This document shows, piece after piece, positions 1,661 through 27,750 of a DNA stretch of 29,465 nt (positions within the stretch are counted from its first letter, which is position 1; each line of letters begins with the position of its first letter). The position numbers and the translations under genes are program-made. Under the pieces are notes generated by a model that was given only the letters and a program-made list of their open reading frames with translations, ran no database searches and was not told the DNA's origin. Origin of the DNA: Atractiella rhizophila (taxonomy: Eukaryota); the NCBI GenBank assembly GCA_021432655.1, contig MU271328.1, forward strand, positions 62,001-91,465. The letters run 5' to 3'.

Positions 1661-3179
1661 ATTGCTAAAAAGGTATGTATGCTTTGATCAGTCAGGAGGT
1701 CCTGGTTTATGGAAAGATGTTACAGAGTCTCTCTTTGTCGAGCTCTTTTATGATACATGGATTCCAAGCAATGATATCATCGTTAAGAACACCACAAGCT
1801 GCAAGTCTCATCCAGATTTACCCATCAACAGCTACACCAATGAGCCAATGGATGTATGGGCTGTAATCGATCCAGTTCGAGCAGATACAACATATGAGGA
1901 ACTGATGGAACTTTGTCTTCAAAGTCTCAATTTGAATATTTCCCACCTAGCAGGACACATCCTATTTCTTTACAAATAATCTTTCATGTTTTGAGAGCTC
2001 CAGGTGTTTGTTTTATCACTTCCTCCAAAAAATGCCACACCATTTCGATATCCCGAAGAAAGTTAATTCAATTTCTCTTCTTCTATAGAAGTAAAGACAA
2101 TACAAAGTCCAAAATGAAGAAGATGGTTTTTAGAATGGATATTGTGTGGACATACTAATCTCTGCCAAGAATTGGCTACAACCATTGGAACATGCACCAG
2201 AAGAGGATGCCGTTCACATTGAAGACCATCTATTTGACGACAATAGGAACATGGTTGGAAATAATGAAGACGAGATTAGGGATGGGATTAGGGATGGAAG
2301 GATGAATAAGGGTTCTCATAGCTTTCAATCTCTCTAGGCACTCAGAGTTCACCAAGGAAAGTTGAATCATTTCAAACCATTCCAGATAATTCTGTTCTAT
2401 CAAACTTTTCCCAATAGATTTGACTGTTGAGAATTTGGCACACCTCTACCTGAAGATTTGGTAAGGTCATCAGATGCATCTGAAGGATTGTTATCTGGTG
2501 CAGACACTTGTACAAAGGACGACTGTAGGAGGTGTGCAAGGAGGAATATGTGAAGCAAGCATTGATTAAAGGTTGCTATAGTAAAGGAGAAAAAGTCAGT
2601 TGAGAGTCAAAGCCCATCATTCACATTGAGAAGGTGAACAAGGCCAACGGATGAGGTTAAAGATCAAGGGAAATTGGGAAGAAATAGGACGATGATGGAA
2701 TTCAAGACGGATGCAGAATAGAGCACACAAGGGTTTGTGATGGAATGAAAAGCCATGTGATGAGGACAAGAGGCTGGAGGCAGAAATGGACAGTTGAGCG
2801 AGTTCCCGAGGTCATGCCAGCAAACTGGTAACCCTGAGGTTTTGCGCAGGTGGCCATAGGCCGCACGCTCAAAAGGGTTTTGCGCTCAATTTCAGGGAGA
2901 TCTGCACTTATCGGGCTGCAACACAAAAGAGGTCGACCTCAAATATTCTTGAATGCGAAAATGTAGTAATGATTAATGATTCATATTAAATACAATTTAG
3001 ACTGATCCAGTGTCTATGAAATGAATGTGTCTGTCTCTGAAGCAAAAATAAAAAAAAATAAAAGATATAGGTACATGGAAACTTGAAATGTAATCATACC
3101 TTCAGACATCAATACCCAAAATGTGTTTTCCTATTAAGTAGCTTGAATATAACATATGTAATGCTGTTGTTGCTCTGTA

Positions 3180-3700
3180 TAACATGTAATAACGATGAGT
3201 GAATGTTAAAAAGTGGAGCGAAAAATACTCACGTTCATATATCAAAAAAAAAATACAATTTGCTATTACTTCACCATTATCCATTACATTTCAGGGGTGA
3301 GTAGGGCGAAACAAAACCTGAGAGTCAGCTACAACCATGTATAATTCATAGTAAGAATGAGCTAATATCAAAAAGTGGAGGAAAAATACACACCTATATT
3401 ATCAAAAATACAATTCCCCGTTGCTTCGCTATTATACATTTTATTTTAGATGTGAGTACGGTAAAGCATGAGAATGAGGGCTAGCCGTCACTACATATAA
3501 TACGTATTGAGAATGCCGAATCTTAAAAAAAGCAGAGGACAAAATATGCACCTCATATATGTCAAAAATGCAATTCGCCATTGCTTCGCCATTATCCATC
3601 GTATCTCAGGCATGAGTACGTCAAATGCAAAGCTTGAGAGCTAGCTATCACGCGTATAAGCACTATTAGCATTGAGGGGATATTAACAAAGCAGAGTGTC
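3180..3700. repeat. Degenerate AT-rich tandem repeat, ~155-160 bp unit, about 3 copies plus partial flanks
   Basis: Units start near 3209, 3370, 3525 and 3685 with AAAG(T/C)(G/A)GAG. The three full units share tcaaaaa..t(a/g)caatt, ttgcttcgc(c/t)attat-like and tgagta blocks in the same order. Confidence 0.85.
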
Positions 3701-3879
3701 AACTCACATTATTTACATTGTCCGAATCTGCAACAGAGCATTCAGTCCTCTTGCAACTGCAGTTGTAATTGATCAAATAAAAGCACAAAATTTGCCTTTG
3801 TTTCATAATAATTGATGCCATTTTTATAGAAAATTTCACACATGAAGGCTGGTGCATATGTCCCAGACTGAAAATCACA

Positions 3880-4280
3880 AATGATATCCATTTGTATCTG
3901 ACTATTCTTGATAAGTTAACCACTACTTTCTCTTCCCTGCTTCAATACGCAATCCAGATCTCCGATACCGATATAACGGATGTCCTCATTTTCAACCTCG
4001 CGGAGGACTGGGGGAACCTTGCTGGAACATTAATGGCGACTAAGGAAGAGTTGTCCATTCAAGATATTATTGGTGCTCTCAGGGATGAGGAAGGGAGAAG
4101 AGGAGGTTCAGGGGAGTCAAGAGGAGGAACTGGGGAGGCACTCCTCACTAACGCGAGAAGGTTCAGAAGGCGTGATCACTCAAGTTCCGATCGACAAATC
4201 AATTGCTGGGTCTGTGGGGACTCCGGATATTTGGCACGAGATTGTTCCGAGAAGGCATTGGCGAAAAGAAGGATAGGTCG
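3880..4280 (+). pseudogene. Ty1/Copia gag fragment (UBN2-type capsid region plus zinc knuckle)
   Basis: ORF 3892-4410 reads ...ISDTDITDVLIFNLAEDWGNLAGTLM...LSIQDIIGALRDEEGRR...CWVCGDSGYLARDC, a CX2CX4HX4C knuckle with H>Y. Confidence 0.8.
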
Positions 4281-4544
4281 GAAGCGCGCCTTACTGAGTC
4301 ATTTTAATTGTGGAGACCTCAAGATCCGTCGAAGTTTGGCGCAAAAGGCGGCTGGGAATCAATTGCAAAAGTGTGGCTTTGATCCTTCGACGTTGTGGCA
4401 TCTGGGGTAAAGAGAATTGCTGGAATAAGGGGGAGTGAGGAGCTTTCAATTGTTATTGAAGTGTGTTCTTTTTTTAAAAAGTTTGTTTCTTTGGTTGGGT
4501 ACCTGTAGTTCCATCGTGGCACCTCATTTGCTCAAGAGGGAGTT

Positions 4545-6906: not shown

Positions 6907-7417
6907 TGTAGCGGCTCTCATGGTGGGGATGGGACGTTGAGTGGAGATAATGGATATATATGTTAGTTTCATTCTATGGATTGTACATGTTTATGCCTGC
7001 CATAGGTGCCAGCTCACGAAGAAGATGAAAATAGGTGGCAGGCTGAATAAAATGGTGATATGATATGAGTGAAATGATAAGAAATATGAGATATGATCTG
7101 ATAATACTGTAGCTAAACCCCTTAGGGTTCAGGATCCCTCGTGTGAAAGCATTCAAGGCATTGGTTGTGGAAGTATCCACCTATTCTCACTCCGGTTAAT
7201 GGTTCCAAAATCCAAGACTGCACATTTGCTAATTCTTCTCCATCGATGTTTCCTCTTTTCCTGACGCTTTTGAACGGGCCAAACCACCTGACTTCGAGTT
7301 TTCGTGAGTGTTGTGTGTGGATAGTGCTGTCCAGCACCATGACGAGGTCATTCACCTTGAAATTGACTGGGTTCGCATGTTTTTCGAAATTCTCCTTCAT
7401 TTTTGCCATGTACCTGA
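6907..7417 (-). mobile_element. Truncated 3' end of the same Ty3/Gypsy family: LTR 6907-7004, 3' UTR and integrase C-terminus
   Basis: Colinear with 8871-~9377. The LTR runs tgtagcggctctc...tgcctgccata. ORF 7122-7409 reads FKVNDLVMVLD...RKLEVRWFGPFK (GPF/Y module of Gypsy integrase). Confidence 0.9.
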
Positions 7418-8870
7418 ATGATACCTATACCTGCGAGACAGAAATAGGACGATCAAGACTATGATCTAGCGAGTGAGGTCAAGAAACTCGTCTCGAGGTG
7501 TAGCTGCTATTTTGAACATGTGGGGTCTAGGAGATGCAGTTTCAAGAGATATAAGACTCACCATAAATAACTGGTGATTTGCGATGAATGGCAAATTTAA
7601 TTTCATGGAGAGAACGGAAACAAGCAGCTGACAAATGGGACAAGAAACTCGAACCTGAGTTGTCAAAGCCTATTTTCTAACTTTGATTGGATTTGACACT
7701 AGCTACGGATGAACTGTGAAGAATTAAGATGGCAAGGAGGAAGAAATAGGCATCGGTAATAAAGTCTCTTCCATCATGAAGAAGACAAAAAAGGGTTGTC
7801 AAATTATGGTTTCCAAAGAAAATCACAGGGAAACAAACCAGTCCATTCCCCCTCAGACTGGATCTACAAACAGCCATTTGTTGTTAGATCTCGATCAACG
7901 GCCGTTCTCAGGGTCATTGAACCTTACGTTTTTGATCAGAACGGTCAATTTATGGACACACATCAATGGAATGGAATAAGAAACATGGAACGGAAAGGTG
8001 CCTCCTACTGATCCAGTAGATTGCTAGGAATAACTGCTATCATCCATGTTCATGAAAATGGCTGTGGTGTATGAATCCCAGTTTCATCCATCAAAGCTAC
8101 CAAAATGTCCGAGTATTGAGGTTCAGGAATGACCGTGCGTGACTCACCGTCAGCAGGTAGGGAGATACTAAACCTGTTGGTTTCTCTAAGAACAACTTGG
8201 CAGTTGTTAAGAATCACTGTCATCCGCTTTGATCCAATCGAACGACCAAGGAACACAAGCTTCAATCGAAAAAATAACGTGTCCCAATCAATTCATAAGG
8301 TTCACAACTTCTGACCACTAGAATGGTTACGCAGATCCCGGTTTTTTTGCTCACGTTCCTTTTTACTCCCTATTGCTTAGAAGTTTCTCAAACAGTTAAT
8401 GTGATGTGTTCCATATTTGCGCAAAATGCTCCTCCAGATTGTAAGACAATGCAAGCATCACAACAATATCTCTCCCTTACCGCCATCTCTAGCTCTTCTA
8501 ATCCTATGTCTGCCGTGTCAAGACAAGAAAATCCTGCCTCTCAGAATCCTGATAAATTGAGAAGCACCTGCATTGTAAACCTACACCCCAAGATTAGTGA
8601 GCCAAAGCGAGTGCGGGAAAAGGAGGGCGAAGAGGAGGAGGACACGGTTGTAAAGAAACAGAGGAAGAAGGAGCTGCAAATACCGGAGGAGGATTTAGAA
8701 GCCTTTAGGGAACATGAACTACAAGAGAGGAAGACCCAATGGAGAATTAAGAACCGTATAAACGAGAAGACTCCTGCAAACAAAACCAGATCTCGAAAGA
8801 AGGTGGAAAATTTGTTGGCAGAAGGCACTGGAGCAGTTGCAGGAGATGAGACTGGAGCTGACGCTGACGC

Positions 8871-8966
8871 TGTAGCGGTTCTCGATGTGGGGATGGGAAG
8901 TGAGTGGAGATGGTGGATCAATGTTAGTTTTCATTCTATGGATTGTACATGTTTGTGCCTGTCACA
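8871..8966 (-). repeat. 3' LTR (96 bp)
   Basis: tgtagcggttctc...tgcctgtcaca; differs from 13462-13557 at about 4 positions. Confidence 0.9.
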
Positions 8967-9073
8967 GGTGCCGGCTCACGAAGAAGATGAAAATAGGTGC
9001 CAGGCCGAATAAAATGGTGGTATGGGGTGGGTGGAGTGATAACAAATATGAGATATGATCTGATAATGCTGTA

Positions 9074-10487
9074 GCTAAATCTCTTCCGCTTCAGGATCCC
9101 TCGCATGAAAGCGTTTAAGGTGTTGGTTGTGGAAGTATCCACCTGCTCTCACTCTGGTTAATGTTTCCAAAAACCAGGACTGCATTTTGCTGATTCTTCT
9201 CCATCAATGTTTCCTCTTTTCCCGACGATTTGAACGGTCCAAACCACCTGGCTTCGAGTTTTCGCGAGTGTTGCATGCAGACAGTGCTGTCCATCAGCAT
9301 GACGATGTCATTCACCTTGAAGTTGACTGGGTTCGCATGTTTATCGAAATTCTCCTTCATTTTTGCCGTATACTTGACCCTGTTAATGAATGCTTGTTCT
9401 CTTTTTGCCTCCAATTGTCCTAGATATACCTCGATCTCCTTTCTTGTCGGTTCCTTGTCGCCTTCCACCAGGTCCCTCACGTCCTCCGACGTAAGCGTGC
9501 ACCGGCGATGCGTTCCATCCATGGAGTAGCTCCGTGGGCATGAATCCGTGGCTCCTAATCTTGTCTCGGTTGAGGGAGTTTATGTCTTCGTCCAACCTGA
9601 GGGCCCAAGTGCTGCTCATGTCTGTTTCCCCTGTGGGTGCATTTTTCCTGCATCGCTCGAGGTAGATGTGGTTTTTGTTCTCCAGAAATCCATTCGTCGA
9701 TGATTGCAGAGCCGGTGTGAAGTGTGCAATCGTCCCAACTTCCCTGATTCTCGCTTTGAGTTCCTCGTTGTTGAAGGTTCCACCTCCATTGAACATCACA
9801 TGAAGTGGTGGGCCGGCATGGTTTACGACTTTGTTGAAGATGCGTACCCCAAGCTCAGCTTTCTCGTTCGACGACATTACGGCCCATCGAAATCCAGTGA
9901 AGTGATCGCATGCTGTCGCTACCTTGCAGACCGGTTTCCCAAACATACGCACTATTTTGCACTCTGGGAGTGTGAGGACATCGAAAGAGAGAGGGAGAGT
10001 GGAGCGAGCTTGAGTATCGGGTGGAGGAGGAAGTTTCGGCTTGACGTTGGCATGATGGGCATGAAAGGACATATCCTGTGACATCAGCTTGCATCGTTGG
10101 CCAGTAGTGCTTCTGTTTGATGTGCCAGAGGGTTAGATCCCGTCCTGCGTGGCGTTGTTGTTCGTGTGCTGAAATGACGAGATTTTTTACTTCTCTTCTT
10201 GGAACGCATTTGTATTCCCTTCCCTTCTGGACGAACAGGAGTTCCCCTTTTCGATAGACGTACGAGGTTGCTCGTCGACAGATGGCTTCTTTCAGGTGTT
10301 TGGGAGTTCCGTCCTTGAGTGAGAGGAATAGGATCAGGTGAAGGATTCCCTCGAATACCTCATCTCCTTCAAATCTCTTGAGCAACTCCTTTACCTCCGG
10401 ATCCTCCTTAACCATCATTGCCCATTGCTTCCCCCCCCCAGTGCTTCTTGGAACGACTCGTCCTTTAACCCTTCTGTCTCCATCCAT
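9074..10487 (-). pseudogene. Gypsy integrase: H2C2 zinc finger, rve core and GPF C-terminus; frameshifted
   Basis: AHEQQRHAGRD...YWPTMQADVTGYVLSCPSCQ; SFDVL...CDHFTGF...FNGGGTF (catalytic D>N)...TNGFLENKN; HGFMPTELLHG; RWFGPFK. Confidence 0.92.
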
Positions 10488-10525
10488 GAATCTGATGTAA
10501 CCTTCTCAGCTTCTCCCACAGGTGC

Positions 10526-12055
10526 TCAGGACATCATATCGCAGCAATAGTTCACACTACCTGAGACGTGTTCAATGCAGCGGATATTGTGGGTGAATAG
10601 ACATTCCCTCCATCGCTCGTGCGCAGGACTCAGCTTCTCATTTTTGAGTATGGTTAGGAGTGAGGGACAATCGGTTTTGACGACAATTGGGAATCCCAGG
10701 GTCAGGTCTCTCCAATAGTCTAAGCTATATTTGAGACCTGCAAGTTCAAGCAGCGAGGCTGAATAGAGCGATTTGCTTGGTATTGTCTTTCGGGATGCAT
10801 ATCCGACTGGGTGCATGATGCCATCGTCGAATTGTTGGCTGAGTGTAGTTGCGAAACCGTGTCGACATGTGTCTGATTGGACAACGAATTCTGAATCTGG
10901 AGCGAAGTGTGAAGAGCGTAAGATCGGAGCGCTGCATAACGCAAGCTTTAGGGAGCTAATAGCATGTCTATGCTGGGCGGTTAGCTTCCACCCAGGAGGT
11001 AACCGCCCTAGTGCCCGCTTGATAGCCCCTGGCTTGTTCTTTCCATCTGGCCGCTTGTCTGCTGGAGTCAGAGGAGCAGCGAGTGCGAGGGGACGAAGGC
11101 AATGTGTAATTTTCGCGAAGTTGGGGATGAGGTTTTGGAGTCCTCCAGCACCAGCTGTGCTGAGGAACCTGAGCATTTCGGCTGGGTTAGTCGGCTCTGG
11201 CATACTCATGATAGCATCAATCTTGCTTGCGTCCGCCTTTACTCCATCTTCTGCCACTACTACCTCACACCATCGTACTTGAGAGACAAAGAACTGTCCT
11301 TTCGATGCTGTGATCGATAATTTTGCTGCTCGGCAACGTTGGAGGAATTTTCTAAGGAGCAAGATTGTCTTGTCGAAAGTCTTTTCTCCTCCAAGCACAT
11401 TGTCGACCCGCCAACCTAGTCGCCCCCTGTGTTTTTGGCATAGACCTCCAAACGCGCGATCCATCATTTCCCAGTACATGCCAGGGGAACCGGTGAGTCC
11501 TAGGGCCATTACTTTGAAAGCGAACAGTCCTCTTCCAGGAGCATAGAAAGCTCTCTTCTCAATGTCCTCTTCCCGCATGAAGACAGCGTAGAAACCTCTG
11601 CACATGTCCACGTAGAAATAAAACTTGTTTCCTGCCATTTCTGCTGCTGTTTGGTTGAGCCCTGCCGCTGGACATGGAGACGATTCTGTCGCCGCATTGA
11701 GTCCCAGAAAGGCTATTACCATTCTCCATTTTGCCTTCGGTCTCAATGGGAGTTCATGCCTCCCCGGATCGTCTATCTTCTCTGGTGATTCAGCTGCCTG
11801 CTTTCCTTCGAGCCACACCATATCGAATGATTTATCGTCAGCATTTGGTTTGGGAACGATTTTGAGGTGTGCAATGTGAGGAGGTTGATATTTGGATGTT
11901 GGAAGCTGGACAATGACGTCGTCGCGCAGCATGGCATTGATTTCGTTGTCCATGAATTCGCACTGTGGACGGGTGAGAGCTCGTTGGAATGACGAGCGTG
12001 TTGGAGGCGAGTTAGGCTTGAGCTTTATTGGGAGGGAGATGCTGCTGAGCCCCTG
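10526..12055 (-). pseudogene. Gypsy reverse transcriptase plus RNase H
   Basis: WRMVIAFLGLNAAT, VDMCRGFYAV, MALGLTGSP, WRVDNVL (YxDD box mutated to VDN); RNase H VQSDTCRHG...PVGYASRK...LLELAGL...KTDC...HVSGSVNYCCDMMS. Confidence 0.95.
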
Positions 12056-13200
12056 TCAACGAATCGTTTGAACGCGGCGCTGTATGCTGCTTGCTCGTTC
12101 AAAAGGTATGTTCTCCATGCTCCGTGTTCGATCCTGGTTGGGATTAGGGGCGAGGATAGTCGCGGTTCAATGATCGTTCGGTGCGTTGCGAGGGGACGTT
12201 GTTGAAATGACGTTCGGACGGTTTTGCGTGAAGGGTTGCTGGAAGCGTTGTTGTGTCGTTGAAGGTTTGAATGACATCTTACCACTTTTCCACAACGCGA
12301 ACATCTCCTCCTTCTCCCTTGCTCTCTCCTCCTTCTCTCTCAATCACTCCTCTTTTTCCTTTCTTGCTTCCCTAAGGTCTGGCCCTAGGCTCACTTCCGA
12401 CAGCTTTGCAACCGTATCTGCTACTTCTCTAACCGTTGTAAGGCCTAAAAGGTGGGTTCGGATAGTTCGAGGGAATGAATCCTTGAGTTTCTGAGCTAGC
12501 ACCGGTTCGTTCTGGTAATCGTCTGGTAGGGCCACAAATCGCAACTTGACTTGTAGGGCGTATGAGATGTGTTGTAGAACCTACTGGGATTCTGGGTTCG
12601 ATGGGTCGAGCGGAATCTTCTTTTCGAGTTCCTGTCCCTTGCTTCCGTAATCGTCTATCAGTGCCTCCAATTCCTGATACTGCGTAAGACCTTGCTGCAC
12701 CTGCACTCTTGGTGGTGCAAATGCTCCTCTATCCATGTGCATGCTTCTTCCAGCGACTGCCAACTTGTTCCACGAACCCTCATGTCCCTCCTTCGTTGTT
12801 GAAGCGTGTACAGAACATGGTCGTCGGCCTGGAGCAATCTCTCCAACCACTCCATAGCCTTCATTGGGCTGTACTGTTCTACCTCCCTGACTTCTCCAAC
12901 TTCGTCCTCTCTTTCCACCACACTTCGAAATATCCCGCCTTCTCTTCCCTTCTGCTCCTTATGGTAGGCTAGGACGTTAGCCAGGAAACTCCTCAATTCC
13001 TCCCTTTTCCCACTCCAAGCTGTGATGTTTTTAATGCTCACCTCCCTTTCCCTTCTCCGACGTTCCCCCCCCTCTCTCTGTTCCTTATTATCCTTTCTTA
13101 ATTCCTTCAACTCCATTAAAACCATCATCTGCATCCTGTCTCCTCCTTCTCCTCCCTTGTCCTCTACCGCTGATCTTCCTTCCCCTTGCTCCAGGTCCAT
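12056..13200 (-). pseudogene. Gypsy gag (capsid-like) region with stops and frameshifts
   Basis: Lies between the 5' LTR and RT. A coiled-coil N-terminus is followed by ITAWSGKREELRSFLANV (F.G....L..F capsid-like motif). ORF pieces are 12658-13200 and 12344-12544. Confidence 0.7.
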
Positions 13201-13461
13201 CGGTAATCTCTTGTTGAATGTGAGGTCTAAGGTGCGATTTGTCAGTAGAGGTGTTAGTGTGTCGGAGGTTTGTTCTGGTGATGATGAGCTGATCGGTAAG
13301 ATCCGTGTGTGAGGAGGTGGTGCTCTTCGTTCGGCTATGGGAGAGAGGCGATGAGAGGGTATGGGCGTGATCTGAGAGAGGCGAGGCGGGAAGGATCCTG
13401 ACTGCAGGGTTTTCTGGGTGCCAGCGTGGGTGTGGGCGGGTTCAGGTGCAGGCTAGCCACC

Positions 13462-13557
13462 TGTAGCGGTTCTCAATGTGGGGATGGGACGCGAGTGGAG
13501 ATGGTGGATCAATGTTAGTTTTCATTCTATGGATTGTACATGTTTGTGCCTGTCATA
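13462..13557 (-). repeat. 5' LTR (96 bp), followed on the minus strand by GG-TGGCTAGCC at the PBS position
   Basis: Direct repeat of 8871-8966. A TGG begins 2 nt inside the LTR end. Confidence 0.9.
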
Positions 13558-14510
13558 ACGCTGAAGTGTTTGGGATGAATAGGCGTGAGTAAACCACCTG
13601 CAGCTGAAAATAGACATTAATGGGCATACATGGTGGTCGAAAGAAGCTGTTTGAGTGGGTCGAATATTATTACTGTGACCACGGAAGGCAACGTCCCTCA
13701 AATCGCCCCACTGCCACACAACACATTCCTCAGAAGCCTTCTATTCAGATTGGCTGTACAGCCAAGCTAAGGGTTGCGAAGCTTCTCAATCAGCACATCA
13801 TCAGCATCACAATTGAAGATATCCACACCCGACATGACCCCTATTCTATTATGGACTTTTAGCGATCTAGAATGCCTCCGCCACTTGCAAAATGGGTTGA
13901 CGATAAGATTGAAAGGGGGATGGAATGGCCTGCAGTCCATGCCCTTCTGCGCCAGTCGACAGATAGTCTCCGAAACGTGGGTTTGAGCTGTTAGGATGAC
14001 AAGGAATCTTTTCTAGTTGATAAGAACTTGTACAACGAGTTTGAAATTCCCGAAGCCTTCAGAATCAAGCGTGCGGATGTTTATAATAGGATCATGAAGA
14101 AAGTACGCGCAAAGAGTCAGTTGGATGCAAATGGATTCAAGAGTCTTGAGAAATGGAAGGAGAAACTAGATAAAGCCGGCTACCTTTCCTTCTTAGCACA
14201 GAACCCAGTCTATGTTTCTGATGGTTCTGTAGATTATATCATGTTTGCAATCTTCTCTCCATGGGAGCAAGAAATGCTCAAAAGATATGGGAAGACGGTT
14301 TGCATGGGTTCTACACACAATGCGCTCTTCACATGGACACACAAGCAATCTGCAGGATCAGAGGAAGGAGCAGAGGAGCGCAATGACCATCAAGACGAAG
14401 AAAACAAGTTCAAACCTAGAAAGAAGCCTACTGGATTCCTCCACACCCTCATTGTGAAGAATCAAAAGACAGGATGAGGAGTTCCCATCGCATTCATGAT
14501 GACGACCTCC

Positions 14511-15009
14511 TAGAGATGCCAACGAGTAGGACTTGCGAGTACGGATACCCTTACTCACGAGTATCGATCAGCTTAAAGCCTGATTTGTAACTTGTTGTGA
14601 CCTTTGACACAGGTACCCTTGTACTCATGAGTACTACTCACGGGTACCCTTGTATTAACTTAGACTCTACTCATCAACATAATTTTACAGTTTAGGCACA
14701 TTAGTTTACATAGACGACTTATTATGCATTACTTATGGCTTAAACACCACTATTACTTGTATCTCAGAGCCAGATAGAGCCATTTTGAATGTGAAAAAGA
14801 TCAAAAATTGATATAAAACTCTCTTTAACTCTTTCAAACAAGTACCCCACAGGTACCTGCCATTTCAGGACATATGCTCATGAGTACTCTTAGGTACATA
14901 GCAGGGAACATGAACGGGTACCCCTGATGAAAATTACCCTCTGCAGCTGATTTGTAACTTGTTGTGCACGGCTACCTGTGGCACAAGTACCCACGAGTAC
15001 CCATCTCTA
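14511..15009. mobile_element. hAT-type MITE, 499 bp, complete
   Basis: TIRs TAGAGATG (14511-14518) and CATCTCTA (15002-15009). Perfect 8-bp TSD CGACCTCC (14503-14510, 15010-15017). Non-coding, with many GTAC-centred subterminal palindromes. A second copy is at 27260-27750. Confidence 0.95.
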
Positions 15010-19380: not shown

Positions 19381-20389
19381 TTGCAAAGCAACGAACTGAA
19401 ACGTTTAGAACAAAGGAAGCTTTCGAGGCCAAAGGTTGAAAAGAGAGGCCTTAAGAGCTTCAATCAACCCACATCTCATCAACATCTCCCCTTACCCTTA
19501 CGGCTACAGGTAGCTTTCTCTTTCCGCCATCTTCACTCCCAGAGTGGCAGGATTGATCACTTGTGACAAAGCATGCATTGCATCTTTGAGGTCCACCATT
19601 TGGCCTTTCAGGTCTCAATACCTTCTTGACCTCAAGCTCTAAGATCCTGTTAATAGGTTTGCCCCTGAAGAGCTCAAGAGGCAGCCTAGGTGGTAAACTA
19701 TTGAGGAAGTCAAACTCTTGATTTTTGAATGTCATAGAGTTCTGATTTCGTTTGAGCCTTCATGTGTTGGTTGAGGAAATCTTGAAGAAGTTGGTGGTGG
19801 TCAAGTTGTCCTGGTCCCAAGTATTGGGTATGAATATGTCAAGGAATCTGTTGGCTTTCGGAGTTTGGGTAGCGAGAACAGTGTTGGGAGCATAACCAGG
19901 GACCTTAAGCAAAGGGTCCCATGTTGAAGTTGAATCTAAGGCGGAATGATGACGCTCTGAAGGCGTACGAGGAGGCGAAGGCACTCTATGTGGAAGTTGG
20001 TGACCGCAGAGGTGAAGAAGACTGCTGCAGATCAATAGCTGATGTATGTTGCATTGTTCAAGAGCAATAACGGCGGTGGATGGTGGTACTGCAAGTAAGT
20101 GGAGCAGAGGGGATTCACAGAATCCAGAGCTGATTATGGTGTCGTGTTGAGCAGGTAACTCTTCACTGAATCCTCTTCTCAAACTGCTGGAATCCACTGA
20201 CTGATTGCCAGTGATGTCTTCTGTACTATACAATATGTCTGAAACTTTTACTATCTTGTCCTGTACAAGATGCCTTCCCCACACTCTCCTCAGACTGAAC
20301 TGAACTGTCAGGCTTTATTCCACATCTACTACTATTCCTTCGCGACGGAACTGTTCTGTCAATCAAATTTGGCTACTAACAGTACTTTA

Positions 20390-20535
20390 GGATTCAACCC
20401 TGCCTCTGTCTGGAACAAGATCCTGGCTACATCCTTGCCTCTTAGGCACCCAGGGTACAACCCTGCCTCTATCACGAACAGGATCCTGGCTATATCCTTG
20501 CCTCCTAGGCACCCCGGATGTAACCCTGCCTCCAA
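20390..20535. repeat. 63-bp tandem repeat, about 2.3 copies
   Basis: Units start at 20390, 20453 and 20516. They translate as GFNPASVWNKILATSLPLRHP / GYNPASITNRILAISLPPRHP / GCNPAS. Confidence 0.9.
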
Positions 20536-26780: not shown

Positions 26781-27259
26781 CTTACAAGTGTCGAAGGATA
26801 ATCTTTTGAGCAAGAGTACAATCAAACCACAAGGGCAGGCTTCAGAACATAGATCTGCATGGTTGTGTCGAGGATATTGCTTCTTTGGTTTCTTCAGTGG
26901 GCGCCAGTATTGCTTTACCTTACTACACTTTACGCTTTACTTTATCAGTACAGTACTAGTCAGGGAAGGGACCAGGCTGTTTTACTGGGTATAGGTTCAT
27001 AAGTTTGTGAGTCTCTGGTGGCTTTCGAGAAAAGTTTGTCACTTCCTTCTTTTCTATTTTCGGTGCAAACAAGTTGCCAAAAAAAGCGAACTGCTGCCAA
27101 TAGAAACCCTCTGCACGATTACTTCTACAAGCTTCAAGGCAAGCCACTAATAATGGCAGACTCCATTGCCTTAGATGCTTGGCAGTGAAGAAGGCTGAAA
27201 TCGAGAACCATCTGTCAGCCCCAAGGAATGTAGAGGAGCGAAAGAGATACAACGAGTAT

Positions 27260-27750
27260 GGTACTTGTGGGTACTTGTGCCACAGGTAGCCGTGCACAAC
27301 AAGTTACAAATCAGCTGCAGAGGGTAATTTTCATCAGGGGTACCCGTTCATGTTCCCTGCTATGTACCTAAGAGTACTCATGAGCATATGTCCTGAAATG
27401 GCAGGTACCTGTGGGGTACTTGTTTGAAAGAGTTAAAGAGAGTTTTATATCAATTTTTGATCTTTTTCACATTCAAAATGGCTCTATCTGGCTCTGAGAT
27501 ACAAGTAATAGTGGTGTTTAAGCCATAAGTAATGCATAATAAGTCATCCATGTAAACTAATGTGCCTAAACTGTAAAATTATGTGGATGAGTAGAGTCTA
27601 AGTTAATACAAGGGTACCCGTGAGTAGTACTCATGAGTACAAGGATACCTGTGTCAAAGGTCACAACAAGTTACAAATCAGGCTTTAAGCAGATCGATAC
27701 TTGTGAGTAAGGGTACCCGTACTTGTGAGTCCTACTCGTTGGCATCTCTA
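27260..27750. mobile_element. Second copy of the hAT-type MITE, inverted relative to 14511-15009, with one TIR lost
   Basis: Reverse complement of ~14511-15001 with about 11 substitutions by eye. The right end CATCTCTA is intact at 27743-27750. The left TAGAGATG is absent and there is no TSD. Confidence 0.95.

Follow-up and report, generated by a model that had tools for sequence, protein, structure and literature searches.

A short-LTR Ty3/Gypsy family of Atractiella rhizophila without a polypurine tract: a conserved mixed motif as candidate plus-strand primer

To our knowledge, purine-rich plus-strand primers are regarded as near-universal in LTR elements. A polypurine tract (PPT) beside the 3' LTR is accordingly a typical feature of Ty3/Gypsy elements, although membership of the superfamily rests on pol order and RT phylogeny. 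Ty3 and Ty1 prime their minus strand with tRNA-iMet, can inherit mismatches in the primer-binding site (PBS) and carry short purine PPTs without a shared consensus (PMC5371799, PMC3185511). PPTs may contain a pyrimidine, and how RNase H chooses primers that lack a consensus is presented as an open question (PMC3185511), while changes to the G-tract of HIV are reported to abolish priming (PMC13332604). The self-priming chromoviruses of the Tf1/sushi group, which share the fungal Ty3/Gypsy architecture, are described as using an 11-nt complement between LTR and PBS (PMC7175516). We compared these systems with a locus in a 29,465-nt stretch of A. rhizophila DNA (the window, contig MU271328.1, positions 62,001 to 91,465; all coordinates below are window coordinates). 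Our literature search, with Repbase and most subscription papers outside its coverage, found no description of a PPT-less Gypsy family, and such a family may therefore have been described already.

The element at 8871..13557 lies on the minus strand, flanked by LTRs and a 4-bp target-site duplication (TSD). It belongs to a basidiomycete family of short-LTR, non-chromovirus Ty3/Gypsy elements, of which it represents a defective copy with an internal deletion. Its coding parts and a neighbouring copy are:

12031..13200, minus strand: gag region, its frame broken by frameshifts and stops, ending at the internal deletion
12030..12031, minus strand: internal deletion junction, about 2.4 kb gone; the missing protease-containing region exists in copy L137
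10526..12030, minus strand: RT and RNase H (Pfam RVT_1, E 2e-7; RT_RNaseH, E 5e-17)
9115..10505, minus strand: integrase, split across three frames (Integrase_H2C2, E 2e-14; weak SH3_Tf2-1)
6907..7417, minus strand: second copy, 5'-truncated near 7417, with the end of integrase, the 3' UTR and a 98-bp 3' LTR (6907-7004); 87% identical

The order gag, PR, RT, RH, IN was found, with RT-RH-IN recognised by Pfam in this copy and the protease identified in L137 by eye, without a profile search. A protease-less family was considered and rejected, since the gap is a deletion specific to the 8871..13557 copy and the region is present in L137. This loss of about 2.4 kb, protease region included, had been overlooked in the first-pass annotation. 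A profile search of the gag region gave no Pfam match, and motif comparison showed the RT catalytic motif (about 11399-11413) to be altered in this copy. No Pfam chromodomain match was obtained on the integrase pieces of this degraded copy.

In a quick RT tree, from which five short rows were dropped and which included no Ylt1 or Tca3 reference, the element fell, with SH-aLRT 99, into a group of agaricomycete elements and those of Rhodotorula, Rhodosporidiobolus, Rhizoctonia, Ceratobasidium and Ustilago, separate from the rows that bear a chromodomain. Placing the RT on a tree, a check that the first-pass annotation had suggested, thus puts it with non-chromodomain basidiomycete elements outside the chromovirus clade. 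Judged from its sequence, the family is probably Ylt1-like: it shares the RT-RH-IN order and the lack of a chromodomain match with the Ylt1-like non-chromovirus Gypsy elements of Basidiomycota, as these are presented by Novikova et al. 2010 (PMC2864245) and Muszewska et al. 2011 (PMC3248453). The closest relative is merely 39-42% identical. Relative C468 is truncated and lacks LTRs, the sequences of two metagenomic clade members stop short of their 3' ends, scans of viral and prokaryote contigs gave matches of 23-31% only, and a near-length protein search for relatives found none. PBS-like matches at C92, C115, C123 and C26 were discarded because these are not LTR elements.

Ylt1 generates a 4-bp TSD, as does the element analysed here, whose ends are:

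13462-13557, minus strand: 5' LTR, 96 bp, first dinucleotide decayed to TA
8871-8966, minus strand: 3' LTR, 96 bp, TG...CA
13558..13561, no strand: TSD copy outside the 5' LTR, 4 bp, ACGC, CpG-centred
8867..8870, no strand: TSD copy outside the 3' LTR, 4 bp, ACGC

The two LTRs differ at 4 positions over 96 bp, and the 5' TG that has decayed in this copy is intact in most others. The 96-bp LTRs and the ACGC TSD had been noticed at first reading, and both hold; the LTRs are truly short across the family. Members with both ends have LTRs of 91-98 bp and those of subfamily 2 measure 93-105 bp. The U3 boundary is exact at 17/17 outer starts, and the inner motif is absent from all 17 LTR starts having an outer flank. 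Given these lengths and outer starts, we rejected a longer true LTR.

Downstream of the 5' LTR lie two short features:

13460..13461, minus strand: GG spacer, putative 2-nt att overhang at the U5 end, with the CC that precedes the 3' LTR as its mirror image
13448..13459, minus strand: PBS, 11/12 complementary to the 3' end of host tRNA-Arg(CCG) plus CCA

The pairing suggests that the minus strand is probably primed in the conventional manner by host tRNA-Arg(CCG), and this side of replication is probably ordinary. The PBS begins 2 nt past the 5' LTR, as is also reported for Tyl3 (PMC5014426), and matches tRNA-Arg(CCG) at 11/12 positions against 9/12 for the next candidate, ranking first among the 32 distinct tRNA ends of an incomplete set (63 of 1911 candidates scored, 58/63 retrieved, several isoacceptors missing). 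A genome pattern search anchored on the T-arm gave an exact match for tRNA-Arg(CCG) only. The match is 11/12 in 7/8 copies and 10/12 in one. In subfamilies 1 and 3 the single mismatch creates an 8-nt palindrome; the subfamily-2 leader has at position 5 the base that matches the tRNA and forms 12/12 pairs, one G.U included (-25.5 kcal/mol). By energy alone, the PBS-tRNA duplex was reached by 11/200 leader shuffles; it is stronger than self-pairing (-21.1 vs -10.9). Extended pairing between tRNA and leader, although suggested by eye, was rejected, and neither extended nor bipartite pairing exceeded chance (112/200 and 16/200 shuffles). Minus-strand DNA would thus start from tRNA-Arg(CCG) on the 12-nt PBS. 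The fixed mismatch of subfamilies 1 and 3 could persist if the PBS were inherited from RNA as in Ty1 and Ty3; the Ty3 PBS is described as not templated by the tRNA (PMC5371799). The GG spacer is found in 8/8 leaders and in the subfamily-2 leader, and its candidate att-overhang role follows from integrase 3'-processing as outlined in PMC5408687. Unlike Ty3 and Ty1, the element combines tRNA-Arg(CCG) with a mixed motif in place of a purine PPT.

That motif lies at the 3' junction:

8969..8977, minus strand: PPT-position motif GAGYNRGCA, candidate plus-strand primer, 6-7/9 purines
8978..8997, minus strand: pyrimidine tract in a U-box-like position, 14-19/20 pyrimidines in 16/16 junctions
8967..8968, minus strand: CC, putative 2-nt att overhang at the U3 end, C in 11/14 and 13/14 at its two positions

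The first-pass annotation had reported no purine-rich stretch before the 3' LTR, with the copy at 7005 alike, and this extends to the family: within the last 22 nt before the 3' LTR the longest purine run is at most 3 in 16/16 junctions from three subfamilies, versus 6-14 in six control elements. The conserved GAGYNRGCA-CC block stands 3' of the pyrimidine tract. Positions A-10, G-9, G-5, C-4 and A-3 are invariant in 14/14 junctions, two more junctions fit, and few parts are as well conserved as this block between subfamilies, which are about 70% identical. Counting 2-3 pyrimidines among its 9 nt, and with no purine run above 3, the motif goes beyond the single-pyrimidine PPT exceptions described in PMC3185511, which speaks against its acting as a primer, as does the loss of priming reported for changes to the HIV G-tract.

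A short, atypical primer used in situ is the most likely reading of the missing PPT. Its position and conservation suggest that plus-strand DNA would be primed by a short remnant of RNA covering GAGYNRGCA, an island past the pyrimidine tract that is rich in GC and two-thirds purine; cleavage of the RNA after CA would let DNA start at CC-TG. We hold with fair confidence, on the strength of sequence comparison, the combined model of a short-LTR Gypsy element with a tRNA-Arg(CCG)-primed minus strand, a plus strand primed in situ from GAGYNRGCA and CC-TG...CA-GG ends. The first-pass suggestion of unusual priming thus survives for the plus strand, with its absent purine tract and conserved mixed motif, and is not supported for minus-strand self-priming. 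We also rejected an antisense PBS at which another tRNA would prime the plus strand, as the best of 26 tRNA ends matched 7-8/12 in either register. The corresponding T-arm-anchored genome pattern showed no enrichment (299 vs 282 control matches), its one-mismatch version gave 13 matches of which none was a tRNA, and among 53 further pattern matches none fitted the motif at ≥8/9 by eye. A family that has spread with exact LTR ends on a mixed 9-mer past a pyrimidine tract offers a natural test of primer definition, and annotation that demands a PPT or long LTRs can overlook such families.

The first-pass annotation had also stressed that the two inner flanks look alike and that a second inner motif lies further in. 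The motif is present, at 8997-9006. The likeness is real and short: it reaches 5/6 in 8/14 junctions and fades to 4-7/12 over 12 nt. We attribute it mostly to a symmetric 2-nt integrase overhang (CC|TG...CA|GG) together with the CCA of the tRNA. Because of the proposed minus- and plus-strand priming sites, linear cDNA ends would be CC-TG...CA-GG, and the mirror would reflect this terminal symmetry and the CA end common to both primers.

Two observations are left unexplained by priming in situ, an 11/12 leader repeat and a 9-bp 3' stem, both of subfamily 1:

13443..13454, minus strand: leader 12-mer, direct repeat of the 3' junction, 11/12, subfamily 1 only
8997..9005, minus strand: 3' UTR motif that can pair with the first 3' LTR bases in a 9-bp stem around the junction; found in subfamily 1 only, this copy having one mismatch

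We consider it unlikely that the PPT has been wholly abandoned, with the plus strand primed by a moved, PBS-containing RNA as in hepadnaviruses or through some other non-PPT mechanism that involves the mirrored junctions. The specific version, itself improbable, is that an uncut 15-17-nt 5' RNA piece (GG, PBS, ACC) jumps to the repeat before the 3' LTR, primes at CC-TG and replaces the PPT. In its favour, leader nt 8-19 agree with the junction 12-mer at 11/12, a score reached by 24/20000 shuffles and 0/532,046 background positions, whereas control families score just 3-7/12; the piece is compatible in length with the 18-nt HBV primer (PMC5408681). The hepadnaviral DR1-to-DR2 transfer, as described there, likewise links an 11-12-nt repeat in the 5' template region to the plus-strand start. 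However, the element here is an LTR retrotransposon that integrates, and its repeat is not kept in the other subfamilies: without co-variation, it falls to 5-6/12 in subfamily 2 and 8/12 in subfamily 3, each read from one old leader, with leader and junction of subfamily 3 paired on the basis of the LTR start. The in-situ RNA would bind far better than the moved RNA (-35.9 vs -17.4, RNA:RNA approximation), and since the Ty3 minus strand is reported to continue into R-U5 (PMC5371799), the PBS piece would not be terminal. If a primer did move from the PBS region, LTR elements would be linked to hepadnaviral replication.

Slightly less probable is a start positioned by structure, either by the stem between 3' UTR motif and U3 start or by the minus-strand 3' end folding back over 4-5 bp on the mirrored flank. 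The 9-bp stem beats shuffles in 8/11 subfamily-1 copies (≤4/100 shuffles reach it), a weak long-range stem occurs in 2/3 subfamily-2 copies (14/200 and 24/200 shuffles), and the mirrored flanks would suit a fold-back. Against this, the stem is lost or broken in 3/11 subfamily-1 copies, the 8871..13557 copy among them, and the 9-bp stem beats shuffles in 0/3 subfamily-2 copies, the long-range version of the third being equalled by 154/200 shuffles. Compensatory changes were looked for and none seen, and the fold-back is limited to 4 contiguous pairs.

We give little credence to a plus strand started about 260-285 nt upstream of the LTR, at a purine run of 12-16 nt. In this reading integrase, perhaps acting on a 1-LTR circle, would later set the U3 end by cutting an internal att site, and the mirrored flanks would belong to the integrase recognition site. 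Such a run is present in 8/9 copies scanned, the LTR is short, and loss of the HIV PPT is reported to shift products toward 1-LTR circles, but by the same account that route does not integrate (PMC13332604). Moreover, the run lies within Gly/Lys/Arg/Glu codons of the integrase C-terminus and its register shifts between subfamilies, it is one of 14 purine runs of at least 12 nt in the element, and an extended U3 end occurs in 0/17 insertions.

Hardly credible is the first-pass model, in which 3' UTR motifs pair with the PBS-position sequence for Tf1-like self-priming or RNA circularisation: although the mirror holds across the first 6 nt, the leader is partly palindromic and novel priming has been proposed for Cryptococcus Tcn2-5 (PMC7175516), minus-strand self-priming is not supported, because the PBS matches tRNA-Arg(CCG), above the 10 nt at which that annotation would have abandoned its idea, in a duplex stronger than self-pairing and complete in subfamily 2, because leader/3' UTR duplexes were equalled by 69/200 and 112/200 shuffles and leader/LTR pairing by 67/200, and because the longest LTR complement is 5-6 nt in 8/8 copies, in a different RT clade from Tf1.

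Under the preferred model of in-situ priming, integrase would trim 2 nt from the CC-TG...CA-GG ends and insert into CpG-centred 4-bp targets. Eight pairs were testable for a 4-bp TSD, with an exact match in one and 3/4 matching in six; one solo LTR matched at 1/4. A palindromic CG-centred 4-bp preference is shared with the ZAM-subgroup errantiviruses of Drosophila, which target CGCG; within Drosophila, such specificity is described as confined to errantiviruses and elements derived from them (PMC5408687). The preference of our family is looser (NCGN), its ends are TG...CA and its lineage is unrelated. CpG-centred sites are preferred for insertion: family flanks are CG-centred in 15/36 cases against a background of 4.6%, and TG/CA-centred in 11/36 against 13.6%.

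The Gypsy element at 8871-13557 is built around short terminal repeats, and the repeats reported in the first-pass annotation were borne out, at these positions:
8871-8966 and 13462-13557, minus strand: LTRs of the element, 96 bp each, with 4 differences between them
8867-8870 and 13558-13561: target site duplication (TSD) ACGC, flanking the element
6907-7417: second copy, truncated

At least 52 matches to the element were found in its own 51-Mb genome (40 of 56 candidates scored), with 23 matches for each element end. LTRs with both ends present measured 91-98 bp, and those of a second subfamily, with an internal identity of about 70%, 93-105 bp. As a common boundary begins all 17 LTR starts that have outer flanks, the LTR is really short. 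The 4-bp TSD was exact in one of 8 testable pairs and matched at 3 of 4 positions in 6. The initial observation of short LTRs, a TSD, no polypurine tract (PPT) and look-alike inner flanks was confirmed.

Pfam identified reverse transcriptase (RT), RNase H and an integrase zinc finger, arranged as in Gypsy elements; the same search of the element found no chromodomain. The copy is dead: it carries frameshifts, stops and an altered RT catalytic motif, and about 2.4 kb are deleted at 12030/12031, the lost protease region being visible in another family copy (L137). The nearest proteins were only 33-39% identical, the named ones coming from Rhodotorula, Rhodosporidiobolus, Rhizoctonia and Ceratobasidium. 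A quick tree (60 rows, 5 short rows dropped) placed the element inside a 28-row clade of such elements (SH-aLRT 99), separate from the chromodomain-bearing rows. Fungal Gypsy elements are described as chromoviruses, Ylt1-like elements (which include a basidiomycete branch) and a small sister lineage, SN_1006 (Novikova et al., PMC2864245). This division and the placement in a tree that contained no Ylt1 reference suggest that the element is likely Ylt1-like. It interrupts a gene-like region (8299-8870 and 13558-14477), in which the frame 13995-14477 appears transposase-like by eye and has no Pfam match.

The plus-strand oddity is genuine. Within the last 22 nt, the longest purine run was 3 in all 16 of the 3' junctions, drawn from three subfamilies of one genome, versus 6-14 in six control elements (four from the same genome), and the reported absence of a PPT therefore stands. 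Every junction carries a pyrimidine tract (14-19 of 20 nt) followed by GAGYNRGCA (6-7 purines in 9), with CC next in most copies, and this block is among the best-conserved parts in the subfamily comparison. PPTs are described as lacking a consensus and can contain single pyrimidines (PMC3185511), and HIV has a U-box upstream of its PPT (PMC13332604). The simplest reading, which we consider probable, is a short atypical plus-strand primer: an RNA remnant of GAGYNRGCA, left in place, would prime the plus strand. The motif is more degenerate than the published PPT exceptions with which it was compared. No full-length relative in another species was found among metagenome clade members and the viral and prokaryote contigs scanned. 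Nor did searches of an open-access library yield a description of a PPT-less Gypsy family, the structural-feature table of PMC2864245, which may bear on novelty, lying outside this coverage. In a control Gypsy family (L151, 9500-9538) about 12 nt separate the G-rich tract from the called LTR start downstream of it, so junction layouts differ among the families of this genome.

Could the plus strand start in another way? A junction 12-mer repeats leader nucleotides 8-19 at 11 of 12 positions, a match equalled by 24 of 20,000 shuffles and reaching only 3-7 of 12 in control families, which suggests primer translocation from leader to 3' junction as in hepadnaviruses (PMC5408681). Across subfamilies, however, the repeat falls to 5-6 and 8 of 12 (one old leader apiece), and we regard translocation as unlikely. 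Slightly less plausible still is a 9-bp stem between the second motif of the annotation and the U3 start, enclosing the junction: it was found in 8 of 11 subfamily-1 copies, but showed no compensatory changes and was not significant in subfamily 2. A start from a purine run 260-285 nt upstream is very improbable, because this run, although present in 8 of 9 copies scanned, is one among 14 such runs, tracks Gly/Lys/Arg/Glu codons and shifts register. Least credible is the originally proposed pairing of the 3'UTR with the primer-binding site (PBS), drawn from the mirrored flanks, since its leader/3'UTR duplexes were equalled by 69 and 112 of 200 shuffles. A second tRNA as plus-strand primer was rejected (best match among 26 tRNA ends no higher than 8 of 12). 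Ten nucleotides of the subfamily-1 sense 3'UTR (window ~9071-9080) exactly complement bases near the subfamily-2 LTR start; seen by eye after many comparisons, this may be chance.

Minus-strand priming is predicted from sequence matching to be ordinary, with host tRNA-Arg(CCG) as the probable primer. Among 32 distinct 3' ends (from 58 of 63 Rfam tRNA matches, several isoacceptors being missing from the set), the best is tRNA-Arg(CCG), which pairs at 11 of 12 positions from 2 nt past the LTR onward; the runner-up pairs at 9. Seven of eight leaders pair at 11 of 12 and one at 10; in a ninth, from subfamily 2, the position that is mismatched elsewhere carries the base matching the tRNA, and all 12 nt pair (one G.U). 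A mismatch that stays fixed agrees with what holds for Ty1/Ty3, whose PBS is not templated by the tRNA (PMC5371799). Counting against tRNA priming, the PBS-tRNA duplex was equalled by energy alone in 11 of 200 leader shuffles. Besides the tRNA match, the proposed self-priming of this strand founders on pairing that shuffles readily reproduce: Tf1-type self-priming requires an 11-nt complement (PMC7175516) versus 5-6 nt for the longest leader-LTR complement in the family, and 67 of 200 shuffles reached the leader/LTR duplex. In 7 of 8 leaders, the one base that fails to match tRNA-Arg completes an exact 8-nt palindrome (window 13447-13454; leader nucleotides 4-11 are 13451-13458), which is missing from the subfamily-2 leader. 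With a self-duplex of -20.8 kcal/mol, it is a possible dimer-initiation site.

The mirror symmetry held only close to the LTRs, at 5 of 6 positions in 8 of 14 junctions, and faded over 12 nt (4-7 of 12). Two-nucleotide processing by integrase is described (PMC5408687), and trimming of a symmetric 2-nt overhang would leave GG past the 5' LTR and CC ahead of the 3' LTR, which would fit the flanks; the Tyl3 PBS likewise lies 2 nt from the LTR (PMC5014426). Past the GG, the 5' flank is dictated by the CCA end of the tRNA. CA likewise closes the 3' motif, without variation in 14 of 14 junctions, so that the two primers would share a CA end and each DNA strand would begin with CC-TG; we speculate that such shared ends could help RNase H to remove the primers.

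Insertions of the family prefer CpG-centred 4-bp sites, a preference reminiscent of the CGCG sequences that ZAM-group elements target. Family-wide, 15 of 36 flank 4-mers were CG-centred (background 4.6%) and 11 of 36 TG/CA-centred (background 13.6%), the latter share being expected from CpG decay; the binomial p of 2e-11 is overstated, as it treats paired and duplicated flanks as if they were independent.

Other repeats lie nearby. Inverted copies of a ~500-bp element, 98% identical and with 8-bp terminal inverted repeats, occupy 14511-15009 (TSD 8 bp) and 27252-27750; we take it to resemble a hAT-type MITE. At 3176-3634 and 3781-4410, three degenerate ~160-bp repeats are followed by a gag fragment of copia type (Retrotran_gag_2 at E 1e-4, below cut-off). 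A 63-bp tandem repeat at 20389-20514 looks by eye like the array that opens the gag frame of a distant Gypsy relative, C468 (locus L149, about 2950-3230).
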